From NCBI GenBank assembly GCA_947589495.1, contig CANQAK010000004.1:1-62344 (forward strand): 62,344 bases of DNA, given 5' to 3'. The notes under the pieces are model-generated. The model was not told the origin of the DNA. It saw nothing but the letters and a program-made list of their open reading frames with translations, and ran no database searches. Made by a program: the position numbers and the translations under genes. Shown here piece by piece: positions 27,256 to 39,919 of this stretch. How positions within the stretch are numbered: the first letter of the stretch is position 1; the number at the start of each line of letters is the position of its first letter. The stretch is from an uncultured Bacilli bacterium (GTDB lineage: Bacteria > Bacillota_I > Bacilli_A > RF39 > UBA660).

Positions 27256-28674
27256 TTACTTTTTCTTCTTTTTTTTACTTTTTTTATCATCTTCAAATAA
27301 ATCATACATTTCTGTATCATCATCACTAGAAATTATTTCTTCAATGTTATCTTTCTTTTTATCTTCTAGTGGCTTTTCTTCTTCAACTTTGTTTGTTTTT
27401 TCTTTATTTTCTTTCTTTTCTTTTTTGGGCTTTTTAATATCTTGATCATTTTTCAATACTTGTACCAATTTTTTCTTATTAACACTTAAATGTATTATAC
27501 ATATTACTGATAAAAGTAACGCTACTGAAAAAGCTATAATTATATATAAATATGTTTGATTTAATTTACTTAAATTATCTAATTGAGTAGAATCATATAA
27601 ACTAAATGTCTTATTAATTGTATCATATAAGTAAAAATCTTTTTTACCAGTTTCAATATTCATTGCATAAACTATGTATGATTTTGAACTATTACCCATT
27701 TTACCTACTTTATAATTTTCTCCATCTATATCAAGAGTAGTTTTATCTATTCCTAAAATTTCTTCTTCAAAATCTAAAATAATTAATTTAATACTTGCCC
27801 CGGTTAATTCATTATATTTTTCATATTTACCATTACTATATACAAAGCTTAAAATTGTACCATCTTCTTTTTTTAACCCTACTAAAGTATAATCAATTTT
27901 AGGATTATAACAACCGGGAATTAAATTATCATTAATGGTTACATCTCTTTCAGTAAATGGTTCTTGACATAAATAATTATCTCTTATTTTAACTACTGTA
28001 TAATTTTCTCCATCTACTTGAACATTAATAGGATTTTCATCAACTACATTAACAATTAAATTATATGTTTTAGATTCACCATTCTCTGCTTTAACTACAA
28101 CTGCAATATTATTAATTCCTTCAACTACATTAACTTCTCCTGCTCCAGAAACACTTGCATAACCATCAGTAGGAGTAGCACTTATATTAACACTCTTTGT
28201 TCCTTCGGGAACATTTACAGTATAATCAAAAATATTTTTATCAAAGGAAGGAGAAATTTCATAACCTTCTACACTTAATGATTTTAATGTATTATCTTTT
28301 GATTTTTCTCTTGGTAATGAAACTGTTATTTGAATTGTTTGAGCACCAGAAACAGGACTACCATTATTATCACTAACACTAAAAGGGGTAACTGTAATAG
28401 TAGAGGTTCCCACATTTAAAGCACTCAATGTAATGCTATAAGAACCATTTTCAATCCATGCTCGATCTTCACTTACAGAAATAACAGAAGAATTAGAAGA
28501 AGTAATATTAAATCTTCCTATAACATTTCCACCATTTATAGTCAACTTTGTAGAAGAACCTTTAGTTAAATTTTTACTTCCTACTCCAATACTATAAGCA
28601 GCAGCTTCTACATTAGTTAAACCAATAAATAACATAGTAATTAATAACAATACTTTTATAAAATTCTTTTTCAT
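27256..28674 (-). CDS. surface protein with Ig-like and cadherin-like beta-sandwich domains and a C-terminal membrane anchor
   Basis: It has a signal peptide. NTLKSLSVEGYEISPSFDKNIFDYTVNVP is the cadherin-like (PF12733-type) pattern. A C-terminal TM helix is followed by a K/E-rich tail. Confidence 0.6.
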   Translation of the reverse strand: MKKNFIKVLLLITMLFIGLTNVEAAAYSIGVGSKNLTKGSSTKLTINGGNVIGRFNITSSNSSVISVSEDRAWIENGSYSITLSALNVGTSTITVTPFSVSDNNGSPVSGAQTIQITVSLPREKSKDNTLKSLSVEGYEISPSFDKNIFDYTVNVPEGTKSVNISATPTDGYASVSGAGEVNVVEGINNIAVVVKAENGESKTYNLIVNVVDENPINVQVDGENYTVVKIRDNYLCQEPFTERDVTINDNLIPGCYNPKIDYTLVGLKKEDGTILSFVYSNGKYEKYNELTGASIKLIILDFEEEILGIDKTTLDIDGENYKVGKMGNSSKSYIVYAMNIETGKKDFYLYDTINKTFSLYDSTQLDNLSKLNQTYLYIIIAFSVALLLSVICIIHLSVNKKKLVQVLKNDQDIKKPKKEKKENKEKTNKVEEEKPLEDKKKDNIEEIISSDDDTEMYDLFEDDKKSKKKKKK

Positions 28675-28678
28675 TTCA

Positions 28679-30394
28679 TTACCTTCCCATTATACTATTT
28701 TTTATTTTAACATAATCAGTAGCACCAATTGAATTATTATTATCAGCATCAGCTGCTAAACTTTGTGAAATATTTAATTCACTACCAGATTTTTCCATAA
28801 TATAATTTTTGATTTTAACATAATCGGTAGCACCTATTCCACCATCACCATCGACATCCCCTTTTACAACAATTGTATAATTAGCAGTTTCACTACCATT
28901 ACTAATTGTTATAACTTGTCCAGTTTTAATAATCGAATCATCACTAGCACCACTTACACTAACTGAATAACCATTTAATTTATTTTTAATATCAGATATT
29001 TTTGAATTTATTTCAAAGCCTATTAAACACCCTTGTTGTACTGAAACATTTATATTATTTAATGCACTATTTATACCAGCTGAATTATCAGAACTAGTTT
29101 TAACATTATCAGATCCACCACTTGCCCAAACTAATCCTTCTAAGATAGGACTTTCAGCACTACTACTTGCTCCTATATTAAAGAAATTAAATAATCCTTT
29201 ATAAGTTACCCCTTTATAAGTAAATTCTGCTCCACTAGTAGCTTTTGAACCATTATTACCTGATTCTTGTTTAGCTAAACTAGCTAAATAAACAGGACTC
29301 ATATTAGCAGTTTTTCCTGCTTCAACAAAGATATCAGCATAAGACATATTATCCAAGAAAGAATATTCTGCCATAAATGTTCCTTTTAAAACAGATTGAA
29401 CAACTGTTGATGTATAATTATCACTATAAGTCAAAGATTCAAACATTAATATTCTTTCAGCATTTAAGAAATTTCTTGGATCTAAATAATAACTTACAGT
29501 TTCTCTATTAGCAATATACCAACCATTTTCAGTTTGAATACGACTTCCACTAGATAAATCATAATATTTATCTCCACCTTGAATAGAACTTAAACTTTTT
29601 TCAGCGGTAACAGCACTATTAAAATCTAAATTAGTATGAAGTGCTTTAAAAGTCCAATTTGGATAACTATTATGAATAAGTCTTAATTTACATTTATAAC
29701 TTTCTGGAAATTGTTGAGTATTTAAAGCACTTTCAAATGCTTGATCAGATAAAGCATTTTGACATGAATTATCAATATCTTTTCCAGGTAGATAAGTATA
29801 ATCTGGCATATTATTAAATACGGGAATAGTAAACTCAAGTGGTAAACTTAATAAATTATTTTCTTTATAACTTTTATAACTTGTGTATGCTTCTGAATAT
29901 GGCGCTGCTAAATTAGCCATATATTGATGATTATATACTTTATATGATCCATTTGGATTAACATTAAATTTCTTTAAATAAGAAGTGAATTGTCCTTTAC
30001 TTATATAAGAAGATGAAATAAATTTAGCTCCTCCAACTATTGCACTTTTAGGACTTGTCCAAGGTCTATCATAAATATCTCCTGAAACATTTCCTGATTC
30101 ATCAATTAAAGATGTATAATCTCGACAAACATATCCTGTTTTAGTTCCTTCATAATATATTTGATACCATCCATTAGAACAAGAATCATTACTTTTCGTA
30201 ATATTATTATTAACTAAACTATATTCAGCATTTTTATTTAATTTTTTAATTATTGAATAATTTGTACCTGCACCACTTCGTAAATTAACATCAGTTCCCA
30301 CTATTTTTAAACGACTTTGAGCATAACAAAAATTCATACTTAGTACGAATAAAAAACAACTAAATAACATAATATTTAAATGTCTTATCTTCAT
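28679..30394 (-). CDS. secreted SH3b - N-acetylglucosaminidase - dockerin protein (putative autolysin)
   Basis: It has a signal peptide, an SH3b-like segment (VNLRSGAGTNYSIIKKL) and a glucosaminidase core (FVEAGKTANMSPVYLASLAKQESG). Two C-terminal dockerin-type repeats are present: GDVDGDGGIGATDYVKIKNYIM and ADADNNNSIGATDYVKIKNSIM. Confidence 0.7.
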   Translation of the reverse strand: MKIRHLNIMLFSCFLFVLSMNFCYAQSRLKIVGTDVNLRSGAGTNYSIIKKLNKNAEYSLVNNNITKSNDSCSNGWYQIYYEGTKTGYVCRDYTSLIDESGNVSGDIYDRPWTSPKSAIVGGAKFISSSYISKGQFTSYLKKFNVNPNGSYKVYNHQYMANLAAPYSEAYTSYKSYKENNLLSLPLEFTIPVFNNMPDYTYLPGKDIDNSCQNALSDQAFESALNTQQFPESYKCKLRLIHNSYPNWTFKALHTNLDFNSAVTAEKSLSSIQGGDKYYDLSSGSRIQTENGWYIANRETVSYYLDPRNFLNAERILMFESLTYSDNYTSTVVQSVLKGTFMAEYSFLDNMSYADIFVEAGKTANMSPVYLASLAKQESGNNGSKATSGAEFTYKGVTYKGLFNFFNIGASSSAESPILEGLVWASGGSDNVKTSSDNSAGINSALNNINVSVQQGCLIGFEINSKISDIKNKLNGYSVSVSGASDDSIIKTGQVITISNGSETANYTIVVKGDVDGDGGIGATDYVKIKNYIMEKSGSELNISQSLAADADNNNSIGATDYVKIKNSIMGR

Positions 30395-31276: not shown

Positions 31277-32533
31277 CTAACTTTTTATGTAGAATGGATC
31301 GGAACTTGTCCCTGCTCCCCCTAATTCTATATCAGACGTTAGATAGAAGACTGGGCGAATCGCATACGTATATTTCAAGGTGTTGTCGCTGATTCCGCCA
31401 AACTGATTCACAAACCACGCTTGGTAGAAAGGGTCCGAGCTACTCCATAGACCAATTCGCGACATGGTCCATTCATAGTCCGATGTTGTTCCCCCATTTT
31501 TTGAAATATGCATCCAGCCATTGTTTATACATTTTTGATATGTTTCTTGCCCTAAACGCATATGACAATTTGTTACGTTTGCTTGATAATAGTAATCATG
31601 TAAATATATTAATCCTATTGGTGCAGTATCACTCATTTGTTTCCATTTCTGATCTGTTATTAATTTATAATCTTTATCATAATATTGGGGTGCATCTTGT
31701 CCAGTCTCTATTCTATATGTTTGATCTGCACTTTCGATTAATGTTTCCTCATAATCATATCCTATATCTCCATACCACCATTCTTGTGGCTCTATTTTTC
31801 CTTTTATTTCTTCATTTAATGTACTTAAGAATGAATTACCATTTGTATTTAATTCTTTAAATAAGTCACTTTCTGGCCATTCGGGACAATCTCCTCCTTC
31901 ACAATAAACGTTAGTAGATGGGTCCACACTATATTTTGCATTCCATGCTTTTGTCCCTATGCTTTTTTGTTTCATCACTTTAATATTTCCTTCTGGAGTG
32001 ATTCCAATGATTCGATACATTTCATTAGATCCTGATGCACAATTTGCTTGTCCTATTTGCTTTAGGCATATATAGTTATTTACATTTGTTCCTTGATATC
32101 TATACATTCCTCCAACTAAATCTATACTCAATCCACTATCTGCTTGACTTTGTAGTGTTTGTAATGTTTGTGGTACTTTATCAAAATATAAATAACAATA
32201 TGATGTTTTATTTGTACTTACTGTTACTTTATTATTTTCCAAATCATATTCTAAACTGTTTTCTATTTTTTCTCCATTATTATCCATACATCCTGATTTT
32301 TCTTCATTTAACATATAACCTTCTCCTGGAAAACTTGATTCTTCTTTATACTGTCCATCTGTGCCTTTTACCATTATGGCAAACATACTATTTTTTTCTA
32401 CATCTACTACATCTTTTAACTTTACTTCATCTAATTGTGTTTGATATGCCGTATGTTTATGACATATTAAAAAGGTACTTACTGTTAGTATTACTCCTAT
32501 TACAAATATTACTGTAGTTTTTCTTTTCTCCAT
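31277..32533 (-). CDS. variable surface protein paralogue 1 (signal-anchored, C-terminal lectin-like domain with hypervariable segment)
   Basis: The track ORF starts at GTG 32545. The ATG at 32533 (MEKRKTT, GGTGA 8 nt upstream) matches the start of paralogue 2. Motifs shared with the other copies: GGMYRYQG, MYRIIGITPEGNIKVMKQ, CPEWPESD, WWYGD, GLIYLHDYYYQ, GWMHISKN, EWTMSR and RPVFYLTSDIELGGAG. Confidence 0.8.
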   Translation of the reverse strand: MEKRKTTVIFVIGVILTVSTFLICHKHTAYQTQLDEVKLKDVVDVEKNSMFAIMVKGTDGQYKEESSFPGEGYMLNEEKSGCMDNNGEKIENSLEYDLENNKVTVSTNKTSYCYLYFDKVPQTLQTLQSQADSGLSIDLVGGMYRYQGTNVNNYICLKQIGQANCASGSNEMYRIIGITPEGNIKVMKQKSIGTKAWNAKYSVDPSTNVYCEGGDCPEWPESDLFKELNTNGNSFLSTLNEEIKGKIEPQEWWYGDIGYDYEETLIESADQTYRIETGQDAPQYYDKDYKLITDQKWKQMSDTAPIGLIYLHDYYYQANVTNCHMRLGQETYQKCINNGWMHISKNGGTTSDYEWTMSRIGLWSSSDPFYQAWFVNQFGGISDNTLKYTYAIRPVFYLTSDIELGGAGTSSDPFYIKS

Positions 32534-32602
32534 TATATAATTCACCTTTTCTTTTTGTTAATAACTTACTATTATTTATTAACTCATCTATCCTATATGG
32601 TT

Positions 32603-32629
32603 ATTATATAATACCCCCCCCGGAGTCAA
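32603..32629 (-). promoter_or_regulatory. candidate sigma-A promoter of paralogue 1 with (G)8 in the spacer
   Basis: The minus strand reads TTGACT (32624..32629) - CC GGGGGGGG TATTA - TATAAT (32603..32608). The spacer is 15 nt. The homopolymer is at 32614..32621. Confidence 0.6.
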
Positions 32630-32834: not shown

Positions 32835-32939
32835 ATGAAAGCAAAAACTTTAAATAAGTTATTGTTATTAATAATAATAATTTTGTCCATTATTATTTTA
32901 ATAGACAAATTAAAAGACGTCGTCCTTATAGTAGGATAA
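32835..32939 (+). CDS. 34-aa hydrophobic peptide (candidate type I toxin-like small protein), copy A
   Basis: ATG with AGAGGTGA 7 nt upstream. The peptide is MKAKTLNKLLLLIIIILSIIILIDKLKDVVLIVG: a charged N-terminus, one TM helix and a charged tail. It is conserved at 34608..34712 with only hydrophobic substitutions. A candidate promoter TTGACT lies at 32698..32703. Confidence 0.5.
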   Translation: MKAKTLNKLLLLIIIILSIIILIDKLKDVVLIVG

Positions 32940-33062: not shown

Positions 33063-34319
33063 CTAACTTGCTATGTAGAATGGTTCAGTTGTTGATCCTG
33101 CTCCTCCTAATTCTATATCGGATGTTAAATAGAATACTGGACGAACCGAATATTCATTTTTCAAGCTGTCCTTGCCGACACTGCCACTCGAAGTCACACG
33201 CCACGCATAGAAGTAAATACTTGAGCTTTCAGCTCGACCTATACGGGACATGGTCCATTCAGCTTGCTCGTTATCCGTAAATGAATTATCATTTTTTGAT
33301 ATGTGCATCCAACCGTTATCTTTACATTGTGTATGTGTATTGTTATCATAATGACAGATATTTGATGTTGATTGATAATAATAATCATGTAAATATATTA
33401 ATCCTATTTTTGCTTTGCTATTCATTTTTGCCCATTTTCCTGTTTCTATTGCTCCTTGTTTTAGTTTTGGATAATATTGACTGTCTACTTGACCTGTTTC
33501 TATTTGATATATTTCATCTGCTGTTTTATTTGCATAATCATAGTTTATATCACCATACCACCAATCCCAATCTTCTATTTTATTTTTTATATCACTAGAT
33601 AAATTACTTAAGAATGAATCACTATCTGCGTTTAATGTTTTATATATTTCACTATCTGGCCATTCTGGACAGCCACCATCATCACATTTGTATTTCTCTG
33701 TGGACGTTTTTTCATCATATTTTGTATTCCATACGAATGTATTTGTTCCATTATTTGTATATTTTGTTTGTTTCATTACTTTTATATTTCCTTCAGGAGT
33801 GATTCCTATGATTCGATACATTTCATCTGTTTTTTCTTTACAATTTGTATTATTTAAACTTCCTAAACAAATGTAATTATTTACATCTGCACCTTGGTAT
33901 CTATACATTCCTCCAACAGGATTTGTACTTAAACCACTGCCTTCTTTTCTTATATCGTCTACTGACAATTGTTTATCAAAATACAAATAACAATATGATG
34001 TTTGCCCTGTACTTACTATTACTTGTTGACTATCTTCATCATATGATAAACTATTTGGTATTAACTCGTTATTATTATCCATACACCCTGATTTATCTTT
34101 ATTTAGTTTGTAACCTTTTTCTGGAAAACTATCACTTGGTGCATATTCTCCATTTTCTTTTACCATTATTGCAAACATATTATTATCTTTTATATCTTTT
34201 AATTTTACTTCATCTAATTGTGTTGTTTGATATGCCGTATGTTTATGACATATTAAAAAGGTACTTACTATTAACATTACTCCTATTACAAATATTATTG
34301 TTGTTTTTCTTTTCTCCAT
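33063..34319 (-). CDS. variable surface protein paralogue 2
   Basis: 418 aa. It has the same architecture and motif islands as paralogue 1. The first ~40 aa are near-identical. Confidence 0.8.
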   Translation of the reverse strand: MEKRKTTIIFVIGVMLIVSTFLICHKHTAYQTTQLDEVKLKDIKDNNMFAIMVKENGEYAPSDSFPEKGYKLNKDKSGCMDNNNELIPNSLSYDEDSQQVIVSTGQTSYCYLYFDKQLSVDDIRKEGSGLSTNPVGGMYRYQGADVNNYICLGSLNNTNCKEKTDEMYRIIGITPEGNIKVMKQTKYTNNGTNTFVWNTKYDEKTSTEKYKCDDGGCPEWPDSEIYKTLNADSDSFLSNLSSDIKNKIEDWDWWYGDINYDYANKTADEIYQIETGQVDSQYYPKLKQGAIETGKWAKMNSKAKIGLIYLHDYYYQSTSNICHYDNNTHTQCKDNGWMHISKNDNSFTDNEQAEWTMSRIGRAESSSIYFYAWRVTSSGSVGKDSLKNEYSVRPVFYLTSDIELGGAGSTTEPFYIAS

Positions 34320-34391
34320 ATTATATAATTCACCTTTTCTTTTTTGTTAATAACTTACTATTATTTATTAACATCTCTATCTTATAAGGTT

Positions 34392-34419
34392 ATTATATAA
34401 TACCCCCCCCCGGAGTCAA
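34392..34419 (-). promoter_or_regulatory. candidate sigma-A promoter of paralogue 2 with (G)9 in the spacer
   Basis: The minus strand reads TTGACT (34414..34419) - CC GGGGGGGGG TATTA - TATAAT (34392..34397). The spacer is 16 nt. The homopolymer is at 34403..34411. Confidence 0.6.
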
Positions 34420-34607: not shown

Positions 34608-34712
34608 ATGAAAGCAAAAACTTTAAATAAGTTCTTGTTATTAATTATATTAATTTTGTTACTATTTATTTTAGTAGACAAATTAAAAGACGTCGTCCTT
34701 ATAGTAGGATAA
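34608..34712 (+). CDS. 34-aa hydrophobic peptide (candidate type I toxin-like small protein), copy B
   Basis: The peptide is MKAKTLNKFLLLIILILLLFILVDKLKDVVLIVG. It has the same RBS (AGAGGTGA) and the same N- and C-terminal residues as copy A. A candidate promoter TTGACT lies at 34470..34475. Confidence 0.5.
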   Translation: MKAKTLNKFLLLIILILLLFILVDKLKDVVLIVG

Positions 34713-34863: not shown

Positions 34864-35403
34864 TTAATTAACATCATAATTATAGACACCATGAATTTTT
34901 AATAAATCGTTTTCAGTAGGTTGTTCTACAACATACTCTTTATCTTCTTTAGATACTGTAAATGTAATTGTATAATCTACTTTATCAGTAGTATCTTTCA
35001 TTTTATCTAATTTAAAATCCATATATTTTTCAACACTATAATCGCCATTCTCATCATTAAATTCTTCACGATTATTTTCTAAATATATTGAAGCATCATC
35101 TTGAGCTTTATATAAATCATATACAGTAATTTTTACAGTAACATAACTTACATCATTATCATATTCTTCCTCTAAAATTTCATAACTTAGATCTTTATAT
35201 TGTTTTTTTAAAATATCACGATATTTATCTTTTTGAGATTCACTTAAACTTTCTTTATCAACAACACTTTCTAAATCAACTAAAACTTCACTATCTAAAG
35301 ATTTATATTTTTTTAAATAAGTATCAACTGCCCCTCTTGCAGTATCTTTTCCACAACCAGTAAGAAGAACTAAAACTAGAAACAATGCCCATAACTTTTT
35401 CAT
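34864..35403 (-). CDS. lipoprotein, function unknown
   Basis: 179 aa with a signal peptide and lipobox LLTGC. The mature part is acidic. Confidence 0.65.
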   Translation of the reverse strand: MKKLWALFLVLVLLTGCGKDTARGAVDTYLKKYKSLDSEVLVDLESVVDKESLSESQKDKYRDILKKQYKDLSYEILEEEYDNDVSYVTVKITVYDLYKAQDDASIYLENNREEFNDENGDYSVEKYMDFKLDKMKDTTDKVDYTITFTVSKEDKEYVVEQPTENDLLKIHGVYNYDVN

Positions 35404-35444
35404 TAAATCACATCCTAGTTTTATTATTTATCAAAAAGAAAAAA

Positions 35445-36077
35445 TTATACATTATTATATGATAATTTAATTAATTCATATATATGTAGTTCTTTTTCTG
35501 AAAGGGGTAAACTTAACTTCTTTTTCATTAATTCATACATTTTATTAACATCATCAATTAATTCATCAAACCATTCTAAATAAACATACTTAAGTTTACT
35601 AAACTCTTTTCTTTTAAACATATTATCTATTTCTAATTTAATTATTTTTTTTATTTTTAATTCTTGTCTAGTTTCCCTATTAACAACATCTTTCTCAATA
35701 ATTTTATAATCTATTTTACTTAAACTAACATTATAAATAAATTCATTAATATTAAGTTCATCTTCCATTATTAAACTACTTTTATTTATAAGTTTACCAT
35801 TTTCTTGAAATTCTAAAGCTATATTATTTTTACCATCACTAAATATACATGTATAAGCTAAATATTCATTTTGTTTTAATTTAGTTTTATTTTCTATCTT
35901 TTTTAGAAATTCTTCTGGTACTTCAATAATCTTTGATATCATATTATTTATAGTTTTAGAATCAACATGTATCAAAGGTATTTTTTTAACATATTCAATT
36001 GTATCATCTTTATCCCATTCATAAAACATACAATATTTTTCTTGAAAATTTAAAAGTACATCATAATAATAGTCCAT
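35445..36077 (-). CDS. conserved hypothetical protein
   Basis: 210 aa and soluble. The N-terminal YYDVLLNFQEKYCMFYEWDKDDTIEYVKKIPLIHV resembles a Firmicute family I cannot name. Confidence 0.5.
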   Translation of the reverse strand: MDYYYDVLLNFQEKYCMFYEWDKDDTIEYVKKIPLIHVDSKTINNMISKIIEVPEEFLKKIENKTKLKQNEYLAYTCIFSDGKNNIALEFQENGKLINKSSLIMEDELNINEFIYNVSLSKIDYKIIEKDVVNRETRQELKIKKIIKLEIDNMFKRKEFSKLKYVYLEWFDELIDDVNKMYELMKKKLSLPLSEKELHIYELIKLSYNNV

Positions 36078-36285
36078 TTTTCTTTTTCCTTCCTAATAAT
36101 ATAATTATAATAATACTTCCAATAAAGAATAAATCACAATAAATACTTCTAATAATAAAATAAACAAATTCAAGAAAACTATACCCTATAATAAATAAAT
36201 TTAAATATAAAATTATAAAAAATAACCCAATTACAGCCATAATAAAACTAATTAAAAACAACATTATATAAAACATACTTATCAA
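36061..36285 (-). CDS. small membrane protein
   Basis: 74 aa with two TM helices. Coding status is uncertain. Confidence 0.35.
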   Translation of the reverse strand: MISMFYIMLFLISFIMAVIGLFFIILYLNLFIIGYSFLEFVYFIIRSIYCDLFFIGSIIIIILLGRKKKNGLLL

Positions 36286-36342
36286 TATATTTTATTTACA
36301 AATTAATAAAAATATTATATAATTAAATTAGGTGATAATAAT

Positions 36343-37152
36343 ATGGATTATATAACATGTATAATATTAGGACTTATTCAAGGAATAACTGAACCACTTC
36401 CTATTTCTTCAAGTGGACATGTATTTTTATTTAAAAATATGTTTAATACTACTATTTTTAATGATTCTTTTAATTTTGAAATTATTTCTAATTTTGGTTC
36501 ATTTTTAGCTATACTATTTATTTTTAGAAAAGAAATAATTACCCTTATTAAAAATTTCTTTTTATATATATTTAGTTCTAAAAAAAGAAAGAATAATAAA
36601 AATGGTTTTGTTTATATAATGAAACTTATTATAAGTACTATACCTGTAGGTATAACTGGTATACTATTTAATGATTATTTAGAAACTCATTTTAATTCAT
36701 TAAATATGTTAGCATTTACATTTTTATTTACAGCTTTAATGCTTTATTTAGTTAGAAATATTAAAGGTACTAAAAATAATGATGAAATTACTTTTAAAGA
36801 TGCTATAATAATTGGTTTATTTCAAGCAATTACAATTATACCTGGAATAAGTAGAAGTGGTACTACTTTAGTAGCATGTTTACTTTGTAAATTAAAAAGA
36901 GATGATGCTTTAAAATATACTTTTATGTTATATTTTCCAGTTAGTTTAGGAACTATGTTATTAAAAGTACCAGAATTAATTAATACCCCAAATAGTTTAT
37001 TAATGCCTTATTTAATAGGAATGTTAATTGCATTAATAGTAACATATTTATCATATTTATGGTTAAGTAATATTGTTAAAAAAGGTAAATTATGGAAATT
37101 TTCTATTTATTGTTTATGTTTAGCTTTATTTATCTTTATATATTTTAGATAG
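36343..37152 (+). CDS. uppP: undecaprenyl-diphosphate phosphatase
   Basis: 269 aa. BacA/UppP motifs are present: GLIQGITEPLPISSSGH and PGISRSGTT. Confidence 0.85.
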   Translation: MDYITCIILGLIQGITEPLPISSSGHVFLFKNMFNTTIFNDSFNFEIISNFGSFLAILFIFRKEIITLIKNFFLYIFSSKKRKNNKNGFVYIMKLIISTIPVGITGILFNDYLETHFNSLNMLAFTFLFTALMLYLVRNIKGTKNNDEITFKDAIIIGLFQAITIIPGISRSGTTLVACLLCKLKRDDALKYTFMLYFPVSLGTMLLKVPELINTPNSLLMPYLIGMLIALIVTYLSYLWLSNIVKKGKLWKFSIYCLCLALFIFIYFR

Positions 37153-37465: not shown

Positions 37466-39598
37466 TTATGAATTTGCTATGTAGAATGGTTCTGAGGTTG
37501 TACCTGCTCCTTCTAACGTTATATCAGAGGTTAGATAGAAGACTGGTCGTACATCATTCTTAGCCTCTAAGCCGTTTCCGTTGACACTGCCTTCCTGATT
37601 TACGATCCACGTATTAAACCAATCGTACGCTCTATCTCGACCAACACGAGTCATCGTCCATTCATAATTCGACGTTGTTTCTGCATTTTTACTCATATGC
37701 ATCCAACCATTATCTTTACATACTCCAGATTGGTTAGTTTTAGGATGACAATTATCTGATGTTGATTGATAATAATAATCATGTAAATACATTAATCCTA
37801 TTTTTGCTTTATTACTCATTTTTTGCCATCTTCCTGTTTCTACTTCACCAGTTACCCTTTTTGGATAATAATGGCTATCTAGTTGACCTGTTTCTATCTT
37901 CCAAATCTCTTTCGCTGATGTATTTGCATAATCAATATATATATCTCCATAATACCATTCCCAGTCTTCAATTTTATTCTGTATTCCACTAGTCAATTTA
38001 CTTAAAAACGAATCACTATTTCCGTTTAATGTTGTGTATATAGTACTTGCTGGCCATTCCGGGCATCCTCCACCTAGTCCACATGTTGAATCTTTATAGT
38101 TTGTATTCCATGCATATTTTCCTATACTTGTTTGTTTCATTACTTTTATATTTCCTGATGGTGTTACTCCTATAATTCTATACATATTATCATCGTAGCC
38201 ATTTTCTTTTGCACTAGTACATTCATTTGATCCTACTCCGCTCAAACATATAAAGTTGTTTACATTATTACCTTTTAATGTGTCTGTTCCTTGATATCTA
38301 TATATTCCTCCGACTAATGTCGAACTTAATGTTTTTGTTGTATCTTTACTTCTTAATGTGTTTTCTAAATCTGTTACTATTGTAAATGGTTCTTCTAATG
38401 TTCCTTTTCCTTCTACTTCTATATCATTTTTCAAATAGAAAACAGGGCGAACCACATACATATTGTTTAACTCATTCCCGCCAGCCACAACACCATTCGG
38501 GTTCACACTCCACGCACGGAAAATAGAACCAGTGGTACCACTCCGACCCTCACGCGACATAGTCCATTCTATATCAGATGATGTTCCTCCATTCTTTGAT
38601 ATATGCATCCATCCTTGACTTACACAATCTTCATAATTATTATTTTTTGTGCTATGACAACTCTCTTGGTTTGCTTGGTAATAATAATCATGTAAGTACA
38701 TTAATCCTATATTGGCTTTTTCTTCCATTTGAATCCATCTTTTGTCTGTTACTTCTTCTTTATTATTTGAATTATGTCCATAGTATTTTGTATCTTTTTG
38801 ACCTGTTTCTACTTGATATACTTCATTTGCTATTAGTGTTCCTACAAAATTAAAGTGCATATCACCATACCACCACTTTTGGGGTTCTATTTTATTTTGT
38901 ATATTTTTATCTAATGTATTATAAAATGTATTATTTAATGTTGTAAATATATCACTTTCTGGCCATTCTGGACAACTATCATCTCCACACTTTGAATCAT
39001 TAGAATTTTCGTTCCATCTATATTTACTTGTTCCACTATTTGTAAATTTTGTTTGCTTTATTATCTTTATATTTCCTTCTGGTGTTACTCCAATTATCCT
39101 GTACATATCATCACTTTGATTTAAACAATCACTTCCTAAACATATATAATTATTAACTTTATCATTTGTTCCTTGATATCTATACATTCCTCCGATTAAA
39201 ATTTTACTTAATGTATTTGTTGTGTCAACTTCTCTTAATTGTTTTACCATTTTAGATTCTTTGTCAAAATATAAATAACAATAGGATGTTTTATTTGAAA
39301 TAAGTGTTACTTTATTACTTTCTGAATCATATGTTAAACTGTTTTCAATTTTGACTCCATTATTATCCATACATCCTGATTTTTCTGTATTTAATACATA
39401 ACCTTTTTCAGGAAACGTCGATTGTTCAGTATATTCTCCACTATCATTTTGAAGCATTATCGCAAACATATTATTTTTTTCTACTTCTTTCAAACTTACT
39501 GTATCCAATGTTGCATTTGCCGATTTATTTTTGTTTATAAAAACTATACTTGTTGTTAATAATAATATTAATATAGAAATTATTCCAATTTTTTTCAT
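37466..39598 (-). CDS. variable surface protein paralogue 3 with two tandem C-terminal modules
   Basis: 710 aa: a signal anchor plus N-domain, then two complete copies of the GG(M/I)YRYQG...RPVFYL...EPF(T/Y)I module. The first ends near aa 410 at EPFTIVT. Each module has its own hypervariable segment. Confidence 0.8.
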   Translation of the reverse strand: MKKIGIISILILLLTTSIVFINKNKSANATLDTVSLKEVEKNNMFAIMLQNDSGEYTEQSTFPEKGYVLNTEKSGCMDNNGVKIENSLTYDSESNKVTLISNKTSYCYLYFDKESKMVKQLREVDTTNTLSKILIGGMYRYQGTNDKVNNYICLGSDCLNQSDDMYRIIGVTPEGNIKIIKQTKFTNSGTSKYRWNENSNDSKCGDDSCPEWPESDIFTTLNNTFYNTLDKNIQNKIEPQKWWYGDMHFNFVGTLIANEVYQVETGQKDTKYYGHNSNNKEEVTDKRWIQMEEKANIGLMYLHDYYYQANQESCHSTKNNNYEDCVSQGWMHISKNGGTSSDIEWTMSREGRSGTTGSIFRAWSVNPNGVVAGGNELNNMYVVRPVFYLKNDIEVEGKGTLEEPFTIVTDLENTLRSKDTTKTLSSTLVGGIYRYQGTDTLKGNNVNNFICLSGVGSNECTSAKENGYDDNMYRIIGVTPSGNIKVMKQTSIGKYAWNTNYKDSTCGLGGGCPEWPASTIYTTLNGNSDSFLSKLTSGIQNKIEDWEWYYGDIYIDYANTSAKEIWKIETGQLDSHYYPKRVTGEVETGRWQKMSNKAKIGLMYLHDYYYQSTSDNCHPKTNQSGVCKDNGWMHMSKNAETTSNYEWTMTRVGRDRAYDWFNTWIVNQEGSVNGNGLEAKNDVRPVFYLTSDITLEGAGTTSEPFYIANS

Positions 39599-39654: not shown

Positions 39655-39683
39655 ATTATAATCGTAAAATGCTACGATGTCAA
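39655..39683 (-). promoter_or_regulatory. consensus sigma-A promoter of paralogue 3
   Basis: The minus strand reads TTGACA (39678..39683) - 17 nt - TATAAT (39655..39660). An AAGGAG RBS precedes the ATG at 39598. There is no homopolymer. Confidence 0.65.
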
Positions 39684-39700: not shown

Positions 39701-39919
39701 ATGAAAATAGATGTTAAAAAGTATAAAACAAATGAAATATTTAAGTTTATAAGACAAGCTACTAATTTGACTCAAGAAGAATTAGCTAAAAAAGTTAATA
39801 TTAGTAAAAGTTCTATTGAGAAATATGAATATGGTACTGTTAATTATACATTTGAAACGCTTGTTAAAATAGCTAAAGCTTGTGATTTAGATATATTTAT
39901 AGTAAGTAAAAAGAAATAG
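39701..39919 (+). CDS. XRE-family helix-turn-helix transcriptional regulator
   Basis: The HTH_3 pattern is FIRQATNLTQEELAKKVNISKSSIEKYEYG. The track start is 39677. The ATG at 39701 with AAGGAG 10 nt upstream is preferred. Confidence 0.7.
   Translation: MKIDVKKYKTNEIFKFIRQATNLTQEELAKKVNISKSSIEKYEYGTVNYTFETLVKIAKACDLDIFIVSKKK

Follow-up and report, generated by a model that had tools for sequence, protein, structure and literature searches.

Switches based on a homopolymer in a promoter spacer are textbook knowledge for a few pathogens, i.e. Neisseria, Treponema, Mycoplasma and Bordetella. Here we analyse a poly-G tract in the spacer of the promoters of two paralogous genes (paralogues 1 and 2), identified in a stretch of 62,344 nucleotides (nt) of contig CANQAK010000004.1 from an uncultured Bacilli bacterium (assembly GCA_947589495.1; the whole stretch is hereafter called the window), and the recurrence of this promoter as a module in related genomes. 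Among the closest described systems, the vlp family of Mycoplasma hyorhinis has a poly-A tract in the promoter of every family member (PMC10502178). According to PMC7864442, which describes the work of Giacani et al., poly-G tracts of ~7-12 residues occur in the promoters of several paralogous surface-protein genes (tpr, tp0126) of Treponema pallidum, where 8 and 9 G dominate in populations and the expression boundary lies between 8 and 9; tprE, G and J are transcribed only with 8 or fewer G, and for tp0126, whose tract separates -35 from -10, a 17-nt spacer is optimal. The same source places the poly-G tract of Neisseria meningitidis porA between -35 and -10 (PMC7864442). Campylobacter jejuni, which has an AT-rich genome, confines its poly-G/C runs to ~30 contingency loci, and its poly-G tracts have a modal length of 9 that is kept by an insertion bias at G8 and a deletion bias at G11 (PMC3401435).

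The original prediction, made from the letters of the window, described two otherwise identical promoters with eight and nine G between -35 and -10, resulting in spacers of 15 and 16 nt. Both sites were read directly and every detail was confirmed. The parts are the following.

32624-32629, minus strand, -35 hexamer TTGACT of the paralogue 1 promoter, read directly
32622-32623, minus strand, CC before the poly-G tract of the paralogue 1 promoter, read directly
32614-32621, minus strand, poly-G tract G8 of the paralogue 1 promoter, 15-nt spacer, from sequence and homopolymer count
32609-32613, minus strand, filler TATTA of the paralogue 1 promoter, read directly
32603-32608, minus strand, -10 hexamer TATAAT of the paralogue 1 promoter, read directly
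32542-32546, minus strand, ribosome-binding site (RBS) GGTGA of paralogue 1
32531-32533, minus strand, ATG of paralogue 1
34392-34419, minus strand, sister promoter TTGACT-CC-G9-TATTA-TATAAT of paralogue 2, 16-nt spacer, read directly
34414-34419, minus strand, TTGACT of the sister promoter
34403-34411, minus strand, G9 of the sister promoter
34392-34397, minus strand, TATAAT of the sister promoter

From the end of the -10 box to the RBS of paralogue 1 there are 56 nt, which gives a leader of ~56 nt. In a consensus promoter scan the best sigma-70-type promoter ahead of either paralogue is the one that has the tract in its spacer, as proposed; the G9 sister scores 11/12 against the consensus with its 16-nt spacer. 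The claim that the window has no comparable G/C run elsewhere was likewise borne out, since these two are its sole runs of at least 7. A homopolymer count over the whole window showed as G/C runs of at least 6 only the G8 and G9 of the two promoters and an unrelated C6 at 16-21, which sits within the RBS-like GAGGGGGG of the other strand. The GC content of the window is 24.5% (base frequencies C = 0.148 and G = 0.097), and by arithmetic from these base frequencies ~0.01-0.02 G/C runs of 8 or longer are expected by chance in 62 kb; the exact promoter 27-mer had zero chance matches in shuffled sequence. The upstream regions of both paralogues are 91% identical across ~330 nt and their cores differ by one G. 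As the two window copies represent a tandem duplication they are not independent events, and independence comes from the 80 copies found elsewhere.

The core pattern TTGACT-YC-G(n)-TAWTA-TATAMT was used to search one genome per species. This identified 22 copies in one rabbit-gut metagenome-assembled genome (MAG), Lapin-027 bin69, and a slightly relaxed pattern identified 73 stretches. In total 82 lineage copies were collected from MAGs, the window, ENA contigs and JGI contigs, covering six or more species-level MAGs of uncultured Bacilli that stem from the gut of rabbit and goat: 26 in bin69, 23 in RGIG2961 (goat rectum), 20 in bin46, three in bin107, one each in bin22 and bin90, two in ENA contigs, two in the window and, counting fully bounded copies, four in JGI contigs. 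The TTGACT hexamer is the same in 82/82 copies, though the search patterns demanded it. A variant TTGACA-CC-G7-TAATA-TATAAT was found in L220 (620-660), where it heads homologue P0067. The genes behind the module copies are homologues of the window paralogues with 28-39% protein identity. Since housekeeping proteins of the window and those of bin46 and bin69 are 57-87% identical, the promoter core has persisted through divergence at the genus level or deeper. The goat and JGI lineage has TAATA as filler and TATACT as -10 box, with an unchanged geometry of 6 + 2 + n + 5 + 6, and this constancy despite the changed -10 box and filler supports TTGACT and TATAAT as working boxes. Furthermore, the module in bin69 begins right behind the terminator (hairpin and T-run) that ends the preceding gene and must therefore supply the promoter. 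All G/C runs of at least 7 in the 583 kb of these loci fall inside the module and none outside. The expectation that the promoter is conserved together with its tract was more than matched: with 7, 8 or 9 G in 82 copies from several genera, conservation goes far beyond the need of a plain promoter. Within the literature library searched, no paper describes this promoter module.

Outside these 82 copies, a promoter TTGACT-TC-G13-TAATA-TATAAT with a 20-nt spacer was observed at 7578-7609 of L208, a contig with 39% GC from an unrelated Clostridia MAG (RGIG3872, roe deer caecum), where it heads an unrelated membrane-protein gene (MNKFKTVVSPIFVLV...). Either the poly-G promoter is independent here or the module was transferred. 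A loose metagenome scan with TTGACTCC-N(3-18)-TATTATATAAT yielded at least 120 chance matches, with no poly-G among the matches listed. The module pattern was not found in viral contigs and a phage origin of the module was rejected on that basis.

Other assignments for the region were considered and rejected as well. The registers TTAAAA-17-TATTAT and TTGAAA-18-TATTAT, which appeared in the promoter scan of the window, have equivalent upstream hexamers that are not conserved in bin69 or RGIG2961. A SigB-type promoter with GGGTAT as -10 box lacks a conserved GTTTAA-like -35 box across copies. An inverton was discarded since no inverted repeats bracketing the promoter were found and all 82 copies face their gene. 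A structured RNA was discarded since an Rfam search of the window gave a tRNA only and the leader hairpin is no better than shuffled (z = -0.48).

Tract length over the 82 copies is 7 in one, 8 in 58 and 9 in 23 (28%), with 10 or more in none. By genome, bin46 has 18 G8 and 2 G9, RGIG2961 has 15 G8 and 8 G9, and bin69 has 14 G8, 11 G9 and the single G7. A comparison of the same locus was made for two genes with the exact protein on contigs of several samples, the remaining contigs breaking within the tract. The P0073 locus reads G8 (L156), G8 (L158) and G9 (L160), the P0080 locus G8 (L162), G8 (L163) and G9 (L165). Contigs with P0095 and P0067 break inside the module such that the tract is unreadable, except for L220 (G7). 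With G8 and G9, the tracts of the window have the ~7 units or more from which repeats count as hypermutable.

Which tract length might correspond to which state was studied by means of a spacer survey, in which -35/-10 pairs scoring at least 11/12 outside the module were counted in the same 583 kb and compared with shuffled sequence. Spacers of 17 nt were observed 63 times (shuffled ~23), spacers of 16 nt 40 times (shuffled 25) and spacers of 15 nt 14 times (shuffled 26); hence, strong promoters outside the module show an excess of 17- and 16-nt spacers over shuffled sequence and no excess at 15 nt. The original prediction had regarded both window copies as low or off states, n=10 being needed for ON. 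In this form it was not supported: 0/82 copies have 10 G, and 16-nt spacers are enriched like 17-nt spacers, unlike those of 15 nt. It is more economical to assume a toggle of two states, one with G9 and 16 nt that is active though perhaps sub-maximal, the other with G8 and 15 nt that is weak or off; G9 is taken as the expressing state since G10 was never seen and G9 makes up 28% of the copies. In the window, paralogue 2 may then be on and paralogue 1 off.

Family members without poly-G provide a contrast. These have TTGAC(A/T)-17-TA(T/A)AAT with a palindromic putative operator in the spacer and a divergent gene for an XRE-type helix-turn-helix (HTH) protein. The window contains one.

39655-39683, minus strand, contrast promoter TTGACA-17-TATAAT of the third paralogue, perfect match, spacer filled by the palindrome ATCGTAGCATTTTACGAT
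37466-39598, minus strand, third paralogue, 710 amino acids (aa)
~39701-39919, plus strand, XRE-type HTH gene, divergent from the third paralogue

The same promoter without poly-G and with divergent XRE design is found in L147, L148 and L152, with Pfam HTH_3 neighbours. P0051, P0011, P0033 and P0059 proved to be paralogues of this kind and served as contrast. Spacers of exactly 17 nt were read in four family members without poly-G (4/4); the poly-G version is one or two bases shorter than this skeleton. Since the poly-G and XRE-palindrome designs share their skeleton, the family has two alternative control modules at the same spacer position.

Given the observed sequence, geometry, copy number, conservation and tract-length polymorphism of the module, we assign a probability of roughly 0.7 to the reading in which the poly-G tract forms the variable part of a sigma-A promoter with phase variation of the slipped-strand (simple-sequence-repeat) type. 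We infer that the hexamers form a working promoter, in which the TTGACT...TATAAT skeleton and the short leader would drive a monocistronic gene whose product would be a membrane-anchored surface protein of DUF6273/lectin-like type. Slippage of the polymerase on the G run during replication, presumably at a high rate, would add or remove one G. The change between G8 and G9 would shift the -35/-10 spacing between 15 and 16 nt and so alter the strength of RNA polymerase binding, G9 probably being expressing and G8 weak or silent; G10, with 17 nt, would be strongest and is absent from the copies found. The same module heads two paralogues in the window and, in related species, at least 20 in each genome; each gene would switch independently, so that a clonal population would show many surface-protein combinations. 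By its sequence, the module fits the simple-sequence-repeat contingency loci of the promoter-spacer type, the defining features that can be read from DNA being present in full or in part.

Length variation among copies and samples is the comparative signature of such a putative slipped-strand contingency locus. What stands of the predicted slipped-strand mechanism is that tract length differs among paralogues (7-9) and that two loci with identical proteins read 8, 8 and 9. Several points weigh against it. The G9 alleles of both these loci, L160 and L165, are only 1-2 nt away from a contig start, the least reliable place of an assembly, for which reason the same-locus variation is suggestive and not firm. 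The length distribution is narrow (8 or 9 in 81/82) and never reaches the canonical 17-nt optimum, and the same distribution could arise from a fixed functional element plus a little noise. Finally, the search patterns required exact flanks, hence flank invariance is partly by construction. This bias is partly offset by a motif located further downstream, since in 40/40 complete copies of this independent motif, AAGTTRTTAACAA, the poly-G core upstream is intact. The narrow length range as such is not an argument against slippage, since poly-G tracts of C. jejuni and T. pallidum are narrow as well.

The main alternative, which we consider unlikely, is that the G run forms a fixed, sequence-specific part of a regulatory module, either as regulator site or as rigid spacer, with 8 versus 9 being near-neutral and a protein factor controlling expression. 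The extreme narrowness of the lengths, without G10 or longer and with almost nothing below G8, would agree with this, as would the conservation of the CC/TC and TAWTA flanks along with the tract and the XRE repressors with operators that are predicted at the same spacer position in sister paralogues. It is furthermore in line with the second motif, AAGTTRTTAACAA, that is found at a fixed downstream distance, coding or not, and suggests an additional control site at the DNA or RNA level. The window has two copies of this motif.

32555-32567, minus strand, conserved motif AAGTTATTAACAA, ~35-40 nt downstream of the paralogue 1 -10 box, in the 5' untranslated region (5'UTR)
34344-34356, minus strand, second window copy of the conserved downstream motif, paralogue 2

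The motif, AAGTT(A/G)TTAACAA, holds the palindrome GTTA-T-TAAC and is present in every lineage, ~30-40 nt downstream of the -10 box. It is 5'UTR in the window and bin107 and corresponds to codons 2-6 (MQVINKK / MQVVNKK) in bin69 and RGIG2961, which suggests a function at the DNA or RNA level such as an operator. In L178 it opens a 14-codon upstream open reading frame (ORF; MEVINNNNLHNITK). Other evidence speaks against a fixed role of the G run. The poly-G copies have no linked gene for a candidate regulator, since the XRE gene accompanies only copies without poly-G. A sigma-70-type promoter seldom tolerates a single-base change of its spacer without effect, and elsewhere in this DNA spacers of 15 nt are avoided. 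Runs of 8-9 G are intrinsically prone to slippage, and this is the sole such run tolerated in these AT-rich genomes. True poly-G contingency loci of C. jejuni also have a narrow modal length (PMC3401435).

A second alternative, in our judgement improbable, considers the module mainly as a substrate for recombination or gene conversion, its shared promoter, leader and signal sequence allowing variable bodies to be swapped between loci (antigenic variation), the G run being incidental or a hotspot. The tandem repeat unit of ~1.8 kb in the window is indeed a mosaic, with 92-98% identity in the upstream region and the first ~30 codons and 45-77% in the gene body. Moreover, one module precedes divergent bodies, many assemblies break there at contig ends, and a Y1 (IS200/IS605-type) transposase gene (L220, 142-561) lies directly upstream of the TTGACA-CC-G7 promoter of L220. 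Nevertheless, a full promoter and an uninterrupted reading frame are present in all copies found, with no silent promoter-less cassettes as in pilE/pilS- or tprK-type systems, and the promoter is not bracketed by inverted repeats as far as found. Recombination leaves without explanation why the G run, and only there, stays at 8-9 bases. It can hold alongside the switch model and need not replace it.

That 8 versus 9 results from homopolymer sequencing or assembly error, with a true tract of a single length, appears very improbable. Many contigs have low coverage (~3-12x per contig names) and several end in or beside the tract; contig breaks at the module are expected anyway, since it concerns a ~100-nt repeat present at least 20 times. 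The same 8/9 split, however, is found in independent projects and pipelines (rabbit MAGs, the goat MAG, JGI and ENA assemblies) and it is asymmetric, with 23 copies at +1 and one at -1. The share of G9 differs between genomes, from 10% to 42%. G9 is not a contig-end artefact, since its frequency is similar at internal sites (8/35) and near locus ends (15/47; Fisher p = 0.46).

The poly-G promoters are accompanied by a small hydrophobic ORF.

32835-32939, plus strand, 34-codon hydrophobic small ORF, divergent from the paralogue 1 promoter, with own promoter and leader (leader from ~32693)
34608-34712, plus strand, second copy of the small ORF, upstream of paralogue 2

This ORF (MKAKTLNKLLLLII...DKLKDVVLIVG) has 33-34 codons, a promoter TTTACA-17-TTTAAT and a leader of ~80 nt. 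It is conserved beside poly-G promoters in at least four lineages (L168, L169, L175, L179, L195, L203, L206, L211, L162, L189, L196 and L024), by which a window-specific artefact is ruled out. Outside the window it is co-directional with the poly-G promoter and 100-170 nt upstream; in the window the segment of ~300 nt with leader and small ORF is inverted relative to the poly-G promoter. The predicted peptide could be a small membrane protein or type-I-toxin-like. That the window tract would serve this ORF, either by a plus-strand start with reiterative transcription on the C run or as a shared bidirectional promoter as in Haemophilus hifA/hifB, is the least probable explanation of all: TATTATATAATA is a perfect palindrome that gives the plus strand a TATAAT as well, 1 nt before the C run, and the small ORF with its conserved leader lies ~200 nt away on that strand, but the plus-strand -10 box has no acceptable -35 box, the ORF's own TTTACA-17-TTTAAT promoter is ~110 nt closer and conserved in L211, other lineages have the ORF co-directionally upstream of the tract or not at all, and the palindrome is lost in the TAATATATACT variant.

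The genes headed by the poly-G promoters in the window are the following.

31277-32533, minus strand, paralogue 1 gene, 418 aa, with a membrane helix, a linker, a beta-rich domain and a DUF6273-type domain
33063-34319, minus strand, paralogue 2 gene, 418 aa, 57% identical to paralogue 1

Pfam gave no direct match on either 418-aa paralogue and a search for sequence relatives with solved structures found none. An AlphaFold model of paralogue 1 (51 homologues, predicted local distance difference test 87.7) has an N-terminal helix (2-28), a disordered linker (28-48) and a beta-rich globular ectodomain. With this model Foldseek gave as sole significant match 9qa6, the immunoglobulin A (IgA) peptidase of Thomasclavelia ramosa (E = 3.7e-5); the next hits were weak C-type-lectin folds. 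The peptidase carries a DUF6273 as its N-terminal domain (PMC12402451). Residues 131-417 of paralogue 1 are 50% identical to the second half of P0002, the part that scores above the DUF6273 threshold. The helix-linker-ectodomain model and the homology to DUF6273-positive P0002 together indicate that the products are most likely membrane-anchored, lectin-like surface proteins. Their body is a globular, cysteine-rich domain without repeats. The long homologues P0002 and P0003-P0007 (710-724 aa) have two tandem C-terminal DUF6273-type domains and paralogue 1 131-417 aligns twice to P0002. The N-termini of the distant homologues P0092 and P0102-P0107 (...GGTYAYF / GSAFAYYQ) appear to resemble signal peptides of the TasA/camelysin type (SipW-dependent).

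Downstream of paralogue 1, at 27256-30394 on the minus strand, are a gene with SH3_3 and dockerin (571 aa) and a gene with cadherin-like domain (472 aa). These two additional putative surface-protein genes mark the region as a surface-protein gene cluster. A poly-G-driven unit of two genes (148 aa and 518 aa) was found in bin46 (L187, 79-4466). It adjoins the same UppP, DUF3603 and lipoprotein neighbours as found at 34864-37152 of the window, with 69-84% identity, which indicates that the neighbourhood is old.

The host was placed by means of BipA. The BipA of the window is 88-91% identical to that of six rabbit MAGs labelled uncultured Bacilli, 72-74% to that of MAGs labelled Mycoplasma sp., Mollicutes, Tenericutes or Erysipelotrichaceae and 63-66% to that of Anaeroplasma and Acholeplasmatales, hence the window belongs to a Mollicutes-related gut lineage. 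This lineage appears to retain cell-wall functions, judging from UppP in the window and a Peptidase_S11 carboxypeptidase, a PASTA kinase and EzrA in related loci.

The type of switch is already known; what is notable here is the copy number, the strict conservation across genera, the exclusivity of the G run and the uncultured commensal hosts. A device known from pathogens recurs here, in uncultured commensals of the herbivore gut, as a many-copy module that is strictly conserved. If the switch is real, small-genome bacteria commit at least 20 genes to stochastic variation of lectin-like surface proteins, for which host IgA or phages are plausible selective pressures. The signature TTGACT-YC-G8/9-TAWTA-TATAMT could then allow metagenomic reads to report the on/off state of each gene without cultivation. 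A wider proposal, to which we give somewhat less than an even chance, is a genus-spanning system of combinatorial surface variation in a commensal Mollicutes-related gut lineage, with 20-26 independently switching poly-G promoters per small genome and about a million or more on/off combinations, an unusual 15/16-nt toggle rather than one at ~17 nt, a module that is interchangeable with the XRE operator and an accompanying conserved gene for a small membrane peptide. A stronger version is that the promoter module itself may be copied or moved before new genes as a portable phase-variable promoter.

Among the described systems, the closest in function are vlp, the poly-G promoters of T. pallidum tpr and tp0126, and N. 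meningitidis porA. The module and vlp both concern a multigene family in a Mollicutes-related host in which each member is its own transcription unit, with a highly conserved promoter, leader and N-terminal signal region, a divergent gene body and a homopolymer in the promoter of every member, here in up to 26 copies in one MAG. Independent switching in vlp results in combinatorial surface display and the same is proposed here. The tract here is G rather than A, in a genome with 25% GC, the 20-26 copies are scattered around the genome rather than organised in one cluster, and the host appears walled. Instead of lipoproteins with a tandem-repeat region III, the predicted products are membrane-anchored globular proteins of DUF6273 type, and reading by eye the N-termini MEKRKTT..FLICHKH and MQVINKK..IFICLS did not show a canonical lipobox. 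The module would hence work like vlp and is, to judge from its predicted products without lipobox and repeats, not a vlp member.

The resemblance to T. pallidum consists of poly-G in promoters of surface-protein paralogues with 8 and 9 G dominant. In contrast to the module, the tprL tract overlaps the -10 region rather than the spacer. The genome of T. pallidum is GC-rich with common G runs, whereas here the run is unique to the module, and polarity may be opposite, since there 8 or fewer G are on and here 9 gives the better spacing. Its cases are experimentally supported and the module described here is known from sequence alone. The C. jejuni system shares the AT-rich genome, the restriction of poly-G/C to contingency loci and the narrow length distribution, and differs in that its tracts are mostly inside reading frames of genes unrelated to each other, where they act as translational frameshift switches. 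With porA the module shares a G homopolymer located exactly in the spacer. Van der Ende et al. reportedly found in 1995 that 11, 10 and 9 G give high, medium and no porA expression, respectively, i.e. one-base steps of 17, 16 and 15 nt result in graded expression. Isolates reach the 17-nt state in porA, whereas 0/82 copies do so here, and porA is a single gene in a Gram-negative pathogen rather than a family-wide module.

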